12,663 nt of DNA, from positions 1-12,663 of the IMG/VR virus record IMGVR_UViG_2740892369_000024. One strand, written 5' to 3'. Below are positions 1,912-2,286 of the stretch, piece by piece. The notes under the pieces were generated by a model, which was not told where the DNA came from, searched no databases, and saw nothing but the letters and a program-made list of their open reading frames with translations. Made by a program: the position numbers and the translations under genes. Origin of the DNA: a virus (lineage: Duplodnaviria; Heunggongvirae; Uroviricota; Caudoviricetes). Position 1 is the first letter of the stretch; every line of letters begins with the position of its first letter.

Positions 1912-2286
1912 ATGGAATTTAAAGATTTACCAATGCCATTCCAGGAAATGGCAGCGAATGTGGTTCGCTCTCAACTGGCGACTCTTGACCTGAGTACCGT
2001 AGAAAAAGAAACCATCGACAATATATCTGGTAACGTACGCCGAGCCTTTATCGGGCTGTACGAAGAGAAGCAGCTCTCTGATAACCAGGATTTACATGAA
2101 AAATACTTTCTGGAATTAATGGACATCATTAATAAAGGATTTGGCTTGTTAATGAAAAAGAAAGGGATTCGAATAGCTCCCCTTGAAAATCATTTTACAG
2201 CAAGCAGTATTAATTCCTGTGATTTAAAGCATCACACATCCGATGGGAAAGTTGAATCAAACAACAAAATATCAATTAATCATTAA
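1912..2286 (+). CDS. Hypothetical 124-aa protein located between ydfC and DicF
   Basis: ATG at 1912 with GAGG 6 nt upstream. The 5' half has E. coli-like composition and the 3' half (about 2100-2286) is markedly AT-rich and rich in Lys/Asn/Ile/Ser. I recognise no domain. Confidence 0.5.
   Translation: MEFKDLPMPFQEMAANVVRSQLATLDLSTVEKETIDNISGNVRRAFIGLYEEKQLSDNQDLHEKYFLELMDIINKGFGLLMKKKGIRIAPLENHFTASSINSCDLKHHTSDGKVESNNKISINH

Follow-up and report, generated by a model that had tools for sequence, protein, structure and literature searches.

The window analyzed here is a stretch of 12,663 nt of viral DNA (IMG/VR record IMGVR_UViG_2740892369_000024, Caudoviricetes), in which gene calls and domain matches identify the immunity region and the early-left genes of a Qin-like lambdoid prophage. 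We focus on an open reading frame (ORF) of 124 aa, hereafter ORF124, on the + strand at 1912-2286 (ATG start, TAA stop at 2284-2286). Upstream of it lies the ydfC homolog (1671-1889, + strand, 72 aa, from the ORF list; PHROG 1744, 2e-39), which is about 97% identical to ydfC of Escherichia coli K-12 and is named YdfC by RefSeq in the identical O26 prophage. Downstream, on the same strand, follow the DicF leader, an untranslated precursor region with about 98% identity to K-12 (2298-2592); the small RNA (sRNA) DicF itself (2593-2644; Rfam RF00039, full length, 76.7 bits against a gathering score of 48); and, further along the operon, the cell-division inhibitor gene dicB (2819-3007; Pfam DicB, 6.4e-37, and RefSeq annotation of the identical prophage). 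The ATG of ORF124 stands 22 nt after the ydfC stop, and direct reading of the sequence places a Shine-Dalgarno-like GAGG at 1902-1905 (+ strand), 6 nt 5′ of the ATG. Both the GAGG and the start codon are kept across all cassette classes aligned (see below), and the good ribosome-binding site (RBS) that an earlier reading of the bare sequence (the original prediction) had ascribed to the ORF is indeed there.

ORF124 consists of three parts. Residues 1-53 (MEFKDLP...GLYEEK; 1912-2070, + strand) form a conserved N-module, delimited by alignment and predicted by AlphaFold2 (AF2) to be a two-helix hairpin. Residues 54-87 (2071-2172, + strand; GC 0.32) make up a middle part, a linker plus a predicted third helix (EKYFLELMDIINKGFGLLMKKKG), which is common to the long- and short-tail alleles of class A, the class of the window. 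The remaining residues, 88-124 (2173-2286, + strand), are an AT-rich tail that is predicted to be disordered (GC 0.316; GC at third codon positions, GC3, 0.237) and is swapped for another tail in the class-A alleles of 106-109 aa. Along the gene, GC content changes from 0.453 at 1912-2070 to 0.319 at 2071-2286, with the best single split at nt 2090 (z = 3.2); the flanks are GC-richer than ORF124 (0.49 in ydfC and 0.53 in the DicF leader). Lys, Asn, Ile, and Ser together account for 44% of residues 63-124 and 23% of residues 1-62. An abrupt compositional change near 2100 and a C-terminal half rich in these four amino acids had both been pointed out before and are borne out by these values. Since the GC break coincides with the homology breakpoint described next, the shift in composition is not a chance fluctuation.

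A search of 5.8 billion proteins returned full-length relatives of ORF124 that are 65-100% identical to it and a second set of relatives that are 87% identical over the first 51% only, with complete divergence thereafter. The PHROG profiles divide in the same manner: PHROG 6937 matches over the full length (E = 5.7e-78; protein 1-124 against profile 1-124 of 124), and PHROGs 1363 (139 aa), 2151 (212 aa), 9419 (64 aa), and 33007 reach no further than residues 1-55/63. All five are marked "unknown function," so membership names ORF124 and explains nothing. In an exhaustive representative search of 1.84 billion proteins, nearly all of the 60 clusters found (31-208 aa, several of them fragments) match positions 1 to 50-66 only, and the 71 matching records of the phage collection, which include Stx2a-converting phages, match through the first 50-59 residues only. 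Protein alignment shows residues 1-53 to be nearly invariant and the C-parts beyond them to be unrelated; the N-module is thus found in at least eight protein groups (at least seven besides the window class) with unrelated C-terminal parts of 60-212 aa. The homology of class A to classes B and C gives out somewhere from codon 53 to about codon 70. In class C, the C-part aligns with phage ORFs that stand alone, beginning at their residue 2, which means that the N-module has become fused to genes that were once independent. For the C-part of the window class, neither the PHROG profiles nor the representative search contained a stand-alone relative; this combination of third helix and disordered tail was seen only in class A.

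The two halves of the gene also differ in their divergence. Across 80 class-A loci on viral contigs, the C-half is 99-100% identical to that of the window and the N-half 91-100%. Among 5,426 complete E. coli genomes, the N-half occurs in 892 and the class-A C-half in 581, in discordant identity bands. ORF124 is thus evolutionarily and compositionally mosaic, with different relatives and discordant divergence on the two sides of a breakpoint at about codons 53-70. The proposal that it is a fusion is upheld by the occurrence of the front module joined to unrelated C-parts elsewhere and by the discordant histories of the N- and C-halves.

Two further proteins carry the N-module. Phage VT2phi_272 and other Stx2a-converting phages encode a 147-aa protein (L003 4001-4444) with an N-module 48% identical over residues 1-50; it stands in another early-left context, with a DUF2303 gene and a PAPS-reductase gene on either side and no convergent partner, and its C-part resembles that of class F (129 aa), which is found in the DicF slot. 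In the representative library, a 149-aa protein (P0156) has a YdfC-like N-terminal half (EPIIFTESFNNEEVYQWMRKK...) followed by the N-module (…VEFKDLPQSIQ…). Either YdfC and the N-module are truly fused here or a stop codon was lost, and the protein hints at a functional link of the two neighboring genes.

When the window is aligned with Qin of strain MG1655, ORF124 appears as one clean gap of 361 columns between flanks that are about 97% identical. Nothing is annotated between ydfC and dicF in MG1655, and ORF124 stands outside the canonical dicBF set of K-12 (ydfA, ydfB, ydfC, dicF, dicB, and ydfD). The ydfC-dicF interval of K-12 has been described as a long untranslated region, and the K-12 operon as described has no gene matching ORF124 (PMC5069750). 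The original prediction, which expected no protein gene at this position in K-12 Qin, was right in this respect.

Alignments of the ydfC-dicB interval together with gene calls reveal a slot, bounded by ydfC (or ydfA) and the DicF leader, that occurs in three states. It is empty, as in K-12, in about 2,850 of the 5,426 complete E. coli genomes (counted with a 201-bp probe across the K-12 junction at a coverage of at least 80%; nearly all of the matches listed are single pieces). In the second state it holds two genes, a forward gene and, after it, a reverse ORF (64-100 aa) that converges on it. In the third, found in 461 complete E. coli genomes (contiguous 100-bp junction), the forward gene stands alone as in the window. 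The forward-only arrangement is the commonest form of class A (461 genomes, compared with 88 that have the gene for a 73-aa reverse ORF, rev73), and 54 of the 80 class-A IMG/VR loci have it, compared with 18 in the two-gene form. DicF is found downstream in classes A-E, and its leader is conserved 3′ of all cassette classes aligned.

Gene calls in the sister cassettes yielded at least seven unrelated reverse ORFs (L010/L016 3365-3592, L014 3299-3574, L008 4362-4640, L009 4293-4595, L004 4386-4619, L125 2828-3022, and L150 3140-3349), which pair with the forward classes as A-long/rev73, A-short/rev91, B/rev100, C/rev92, PPompW/rev77, D/rev64, and E/rev69. They abut the 3′ end of the forward gene or overlap it by up to 77 nt and have in common a conserved leader and a strong RBS (AGGAGGGTGAAATG, minus strand), except for the class-B one in L009. 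Those with a PHROG match (not all have one) fall into families 7249, 8894, 18692, 10348, 4987, and 4274, whose function is unknown. Searches of Pfam and PADLOC gave no match above noise for the seven reverse ORFs and nothing for the larger forward-class proteins (P0141, P0144, P0136, and others); weak matches of one or the other to BrxA, IraP, and PDC-S32 were judged to be noise. The 73-aa ORF has one distant match only, in a Salmonella phage, in a tblastn search against phages. A consensus scan found no promoter for the reverse gene. It did report a stem of 9 pairs on the minus strand of L010 (3273-3251), with TCTTTTTC after it, at a distance of about 90 nt beyond the stop of the reverse ORF. 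This antisense hairpin with its T-run, present in the two-gene cassettes within forward codons about 84-91, looks like a reverse-gene terminator. The window has a probable weakened remnant of it at 2162-2184 (minus strand), which the scan did not report and whose stem, read directly, contains two mismatches.

In L010, L011, and L016, a 73-aa reverse ORF with AGGAGGGTGAAATG occupies the position of the window junction (2287-2297), at which alignment shows the reverse gene to be absent and about 240 bp to be missing relative to the sister cassettes. The distance from the forward stop to the DicF leader is 23 nt in the window type versus 264 nt in the two-gene type. The diverged lineage L068 also lacks the reverse gene and has its junction at the same position as the window. 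The K-12 junction retains 16 nt (GGTTAGTAATTAAGGA) that form the outer part of the reverse-gene leader in fuller cassettes and that the window lacks; because of this retained piece, K-12 is most simply explained as a deletion of a two-gene cassette. The simplest history would be a two-gene ancestor from which independent deletions gave rise to the K-12 type, with both genes lost, and to the window type, with the reverse gene lost. A third, independent internal deletion, in L012, left only the reverse RBS and ATG. Two parts of the original prediction have to be revised in this light. ORF124 had been described as inserted, whereas K-12 keeps 16 nt of the right edge of the cassette and so more simply represents a deletion; and recent acquisition had been proposed, whereas the forward-only arrangement is known from 461 genomes and from two lineages with a distance of about 0.57 synonymous substitutions per site (dS) between their C-halves. 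The presence or absence of ORF124 is normal lambdoid phage mosaicism rather than a surprise.

We estimated the ratio of nonsynonymous to synonymous substitution rates (dN/dS) by the pairwise method of Nei and Gojobori (NG86), with recombination left in. Across classes, the N-module has a ratio of 0.02-0.2; among close alleles of class A, that of the C-part is 0.17-0.39. Values rise when the most diverged allele, L012, is one of the pair, to 0.44-0.55 in the N-module and 0.49 in the C-part. By segment, the class-A middle part (residues 54-87) has 0.19-0.28 and the tail 0.15-0.33. Between the C-halves of the window and of L068, neither of which is accompanied by a reverse gene, dS is 0.57 and dN/dS is 0.17 overall and 0.15 in the tail. 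Polymorphism within the window-type lineage is also biased to synonymous changes per site. The open frame of 124, 109, or 106 aa is intact in 80 out of 80 class-A IMG/VR loci, and the exact ORF124 protein is present on at least 1,000 contigs. The excess of synonymous over nonsynonymous changes per site and the frame that stays open across diverged alleles argue that ORF124 is a genuine protein-coding gene under purifying selection. An antisense ORF of 52 aa at 1971-2129 was rejected as a candidate because substitutions in the N-module, with which it overlaps, accord with the forward frame.

The AF2 model of ORF124, run with an alignment of 33 sequences, predicts confident helices at residues 8-23 and 32-55 (predicted local distance difference test, pLDDT, about 90), a third helix at residues 59-84 (pLDDT 60-70), and a disordered tail at residues 88-124 (pLDDT <50). 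The protein is soluble as judged from its sequence, with a pI of 5.9, and its maximum 19-residue hydropathy of 0.52 indicates no transmembrane segment. Searches of Pfam, NCBIfam, and PADLOC with ORF124 gave only noise (for example, VLPT with 16 bits against a cutoff of 27), and in the same three collections no toxin or antitoxin domain was found above noise in ORF124 or in the reverse ORFs. A profile search of PDB sequences had a best E of 0.16, and Foldseek returned no PDB structure for the AF2 model at E ≤ 0.001. A Foldseek match to KIX at E = 1.3 was judged to be noise for a small helical model, as was one to AcrIIC4 at E about 9. Against BFVD, Foldseek found only a 52-aa homolog from phage phi191. 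With regard to known defense and anti-defense systems, ORF124 matched no PADLOC model and no solved anti-defense fold. The ORF region is identical to a prophage of O26:H11 and other Shiga toxin-producing E. coli (STEC) strains, in which RefSeq lists the product as WP_000394528.1, "hypothetical protein." No mention of ORF124 was found in the literature, whether by the genes of the locus (ydfC, dicF, and dicB), by accession or N-terminal peptide, or in work on lambdoid hotspots and sieB. The gene is already annotated as hypothetical in hundreds of genomes and is best classed as a mosaic phage accessory gene.

The consensus scan gave three promoter-like sites around ORF124 where 3.7 would be expected by chance; a promoter-like site at 1886-1913 scores 9 of 12. 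Neither a promoter nor a terminator belonging to ORF124 itself stands above chance. No terminator-like site was found on the + strand between ORF124 and DicF, so that co-transcription with DicF is reasonable to expect, and the idea that the ORF lies inside the operon and is transcribed together with the division inhibitors is retained in that form. In K-12, DicF is processed from a long operon transcript, and its 5′ end is generated by RNase E (PMC5069750). The repressor of the window (about 370-1083, 237 aa) matches the HTH_3 and Peptidase_S24 domains, and the dicBF-type operon is therefore likely to be SOS-inducible here. DicA of K-12 Qin has 135 aa and no S24 domain, and the repressor of the window is LexA/CI-like and presumably SOS-cleavable. 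The stretch at 2071-2300 shows no excess of RNA folding (z = −0.75 versus shuffled controls), and an Rfam scan at E up to 1 found only DicF and a sub-threshold match to STnc100, both outside ORF124. With neither an Rfam match in the ORF nor a folding signal, an RNA element in ORF124 was rejected.

Several known systems can be compared with the slot. Lambda Kil, CIII, and Ral, Qin DicB and YdfD, and Rac KilR are small, soluble, dispensable, and variably present proteins that bind host proteins. ORF124 has the same operon position as these early-left accessory proteins and the same expected expression on derepression but is without sequence, profile, or fold similarity to any of them. The sieB gene (with esc) of lambda, P22, and Rac is a lysogen-expressed exclusion gene set against or within the early-left operon. 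In K-12 Rac (L018 3172-3660), sieB opposes the early-left operon between ydaF (DUF1391) and kilS/kilR. The reverse gene of the sister cassettes is likewise placed between a DUF1391 gene and a pair of sRNA and division inhibitor. However, the window has no reverse gene, the reverse ORFs of 64-100 aa are unrelated to SieB, and ORF124 is a forward gene with no membrane segment and no Pfam or PHROG SieB match. Homology of the slot flanks to those of Rac sieB was considered and rejected, since only the ydfA-like and the dicB-upstream/kilR-upstream segments match.

In their conserved N-terminal part and unrelated AT-rich C-parts that change together with a small adjacent gene, the cassettes resemble the CdiA-CT/CdiI, Rhs-CT/RhsI, and colicin-type modules, and the conserved flanks could serve as recombination anchors as they do in polymorphic toxin/immunity cassettes. 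In contrast to polymorphic toxins, the slot proteins are tiny and have no secretion or delivery domain and no recognizable toxin fold, and the partner gene of the sister cassettes, known here from sequence, is convergent rather than co-directional. In the window itself there is no toxin-antitoxin-like partner; the convergent partner-like ORF occurs only in sister cassettes. Lambdoid mosaicism and morons as treated by Hendrix and Juhala offer the further likeness of sharp homology boundaries, foreign composition, and presence or absence among near-identical prophages. A moron in Hendrix's definition has its own promoter and terminator and is expressed from the repressed prophage. ORF124 agrees with that concept in base composition (GC 0.32 in the C-part versus 0.49 and 0.53 in the flanks) and in presence/absence; it differs in that one of its boundaries lies inside the gene at a domain border and in that it has no promoter or terminator of its own above chance. 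The term moron used in the original prediction therefore does not apply in the strict sense.

The reading that we moderately favor is that ORF124 is a genuine non-essential accessory gene of the early-left (dicBF) operon, modular in build and located in a polymorphic slot, and that its product is a binding protein. The parts of this reading differ in strength. We have high confidence in the anatomy of ORF124 and of the slot as described above, and it is quite likely that the gene is functional; the protein-binding model is tentative. The mosaic would have arisen by recombination anchored on the N-module DNA on the left and on the DicF leader on the right, and in the fuller versions the exchanged block would also carry the class-specific convergent reverse gene. 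The window allele would have lost this reverse gene or never had it, and K-12 would have lost both genes. As to the timing of expression, we infer that ORF124 would be silent in the lysogen under the S24-type repressor and that, upon SOS inactivation of this CI-like repressor, it would be made with YdfA, YdfB, YdfC, DicF, and DicB from one transcript. The N hairpin also occurs alone, as proteins of 52-66 aa, and for this reason it may be the functional core, a constant element that would contact a conserved phage or host partner. The C-part would tune or redirect specificity, as in other non-essential early-left host-takeover or counter-defense factors.

Several observations weigh against this reading. 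The slot is empty in more than half of the complete E. coli genomes, and ORF124 is therefore dispensable for the operon. Searches by homology and by fold gave no match that suggests an activity, disorder is predicted for a third of the protein, and the case for its translation is an evolutionary one. The polarity of the events in the slot, deletion as opposed to insertion, derives from parsimony on an unrooted comparison. Finally, the antisense terminator, and not protein function, may constrain part of the C-part.

The foremost alternative, which we regard as unlikely although several features of the sister cassettes are in line with it, holds that ORF124 is the orphaned half of a two-gene module. 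The forward C-part would be the cognate antagonist (for self-immunity or anti-exclusion) of the reverse product, and the reverse gene would serve the lysogen in exclusion or defense, being expressed there like sieB in the equivalent Rac slot; with the reverse gene gone from the window, ORF124 would be a leftover with little remaining role. The pairing of each forward C-class with its own unrelated reverse ORF agrees with such a module, as do the 3′ ends that abut or overlap by up to 77 nt, the leader and strong RBS (AGGAGGGTGAAATG) common to the reverse ORFs apart from the class-B one in L009, the terminator-like hairpin of the reverse gene inside the forward C-part, and the orientation of Rac sieB, which faces the early-left operon between the DUF1391 gene ydaF and kilS/kilR. 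Yet co-variation of adjacent segments is expected from linkage alone, and the scan detected no promoter-like site for the reverse gene, whose products also lack PADLOC and Pfam matches. The diverged forward-only lineages share a junction and have a C-part dN/dS of 0.17, compared with 0.34 in two-gene alleles; the forward-only form is five times commoner than the rev73 form (461 versus 88 genomes), and the N-module gene of Stx2a phages has no reverse partner. A broader version, to which we likewise give a low probability, sees the ydfC-DicF interval as an undescribed hypervariable hotspot of matched two-gene exclusion/anti-exclusion or defense/self-immunity modules at the position of Rac sieB. 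Here an induction-expressed forward protein would be matched to a convergent and possibly lysogen-expressed small protein, and ORF124 would be a stand-alone member with an independent role, for example in counter-defense against the modules of related prophages.

That ORF124 is non-functional, a decaying remnant or a chance frame in foreign AT-rich DNA that became joined to a short conserved ORF and persists only by hitch-hiking between neighbors under selection, strikes us as rather improbable. The absence of any known domain, the disordered and low-complexity tail, its replacement or truncation in the alleles of 106-109 aa, and the empty slot of about 2,850 genomes, in which DicF and dicB seem to be unharmed, could all be explained in this way, but dN/dS is well below 1 in every segment, the tail (0.15-0.33) included, none of the 80 loci has a frameshift or premature stop, the RBS and start codon are kept across all classes, and an AT-rich stretch of 216 nt would not be expected to stay free of in-frame stops by chance in alleles with 15-18% DNA divergence. 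Still less probable is a recent moron or fusion, a foreign AT-rich gene that entered a K-12-like ydfC-dicF interval and became joined to local sequence, with its own expression signals and a trait for the lysogen. The fusion of modules is real, ORF124 is absent from K-12, and its C-part looks foreign (GC 0.32 against about 0.5 in the flanks). However, the 16 nt of the right edge that K-12 keeps and the window lacks favor independent deletions from a fuller ancestor; the N-module, and not the C-part alone, is missing from K-12; the arrangement is old, with a dS of 0.57 between forward-only lineages; and the promoter-like sites (three versus 3.7 expected) and the lack of a terminator of its own provide no sign of independent expression. 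We consider it highly improbable that the AT-rich stretch acts mainly as RNA, as a cis element that alters how the DicF precursor is processed or how stable it is, or as an antisense-regulated segment, with the protein incidental. It does lie within the DicF precursor, about 300 nt upstream of the 5′ end generated by RNase E (PMC5069750), and it contains the antisense hairpin remnant. Against this, the substitutions follow the codon frame, K-12 makes DicF without the segment, 2071-2300 has no excess structure (z = −0.75), and Rfam at E up to 1 matches nothing except DicF and the sub-threshold STnc100, both outside ORF124.

DicF and DicB have been studied almost entirely in K-12, where the slot is empty, and DicF affects virulence regulation in STEC. 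About 890 of the 5,426 complete E. coli genomes, including O26, O157, and other STEC, have an extra conserved-plus-variable gene just 5′ of DicF, and the slot thus corrects the operon map for pathogenic strains. Its empty, forward-only, and two-gene states make up a natural series in which effects on prophage induction, cell division control, and phage exclusion could be compared, and the recombination joint at the domain boundary could be used to classify Qin-like prophages. Should ORF124 prove to be without phenotype, it would be one more case of ordinary lambdoid mosaicism.

A Cro-like gene was called on the minus strand at 102-317, and gene calls and domain matches place ydfA (DUF1391) at 1356-1511, ydfB at 1513-1641, and a DUF1482/ydfD homolog at 3004-3192. 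These are followed by the gene for an exonuclease of 823 aa (3288-5759) and then by xis and int (integrase at 6059-7177). The exonuclease gene is intact in the window, whereas ydfE of K-12 is a pseudogene disrupted by IS2; relatives of the exonuclease carry YdfE_N, YdfE_C, and Rv2179c-like domains. To the right of the integrase, at 7967-12628, lies type III effector cargo, in which domain matches identify an ORF of the IpaB/EvcA family (7967-8557, minus strand) and four ORFs of the NleG family (8741-9391 on the + strand; 10652-11287, 11355-11942, and 12227-12628 on the minus strand). This cargo indicates a host of the enterohemorrhagic or enteropathogenic E. coli type. This right-hand neighborhood differs from the potC junction of O26 strain FWSEC0001. 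The sub-threshold Rfam match to STnc100, at 2642-2851, scores 34.2 bits against a gathering score of 47 (E = 2e-5); the stretch spans the 3′ end of DicF to the start of dicB and is 79% identical to the kilS-kilR interval of Rac.

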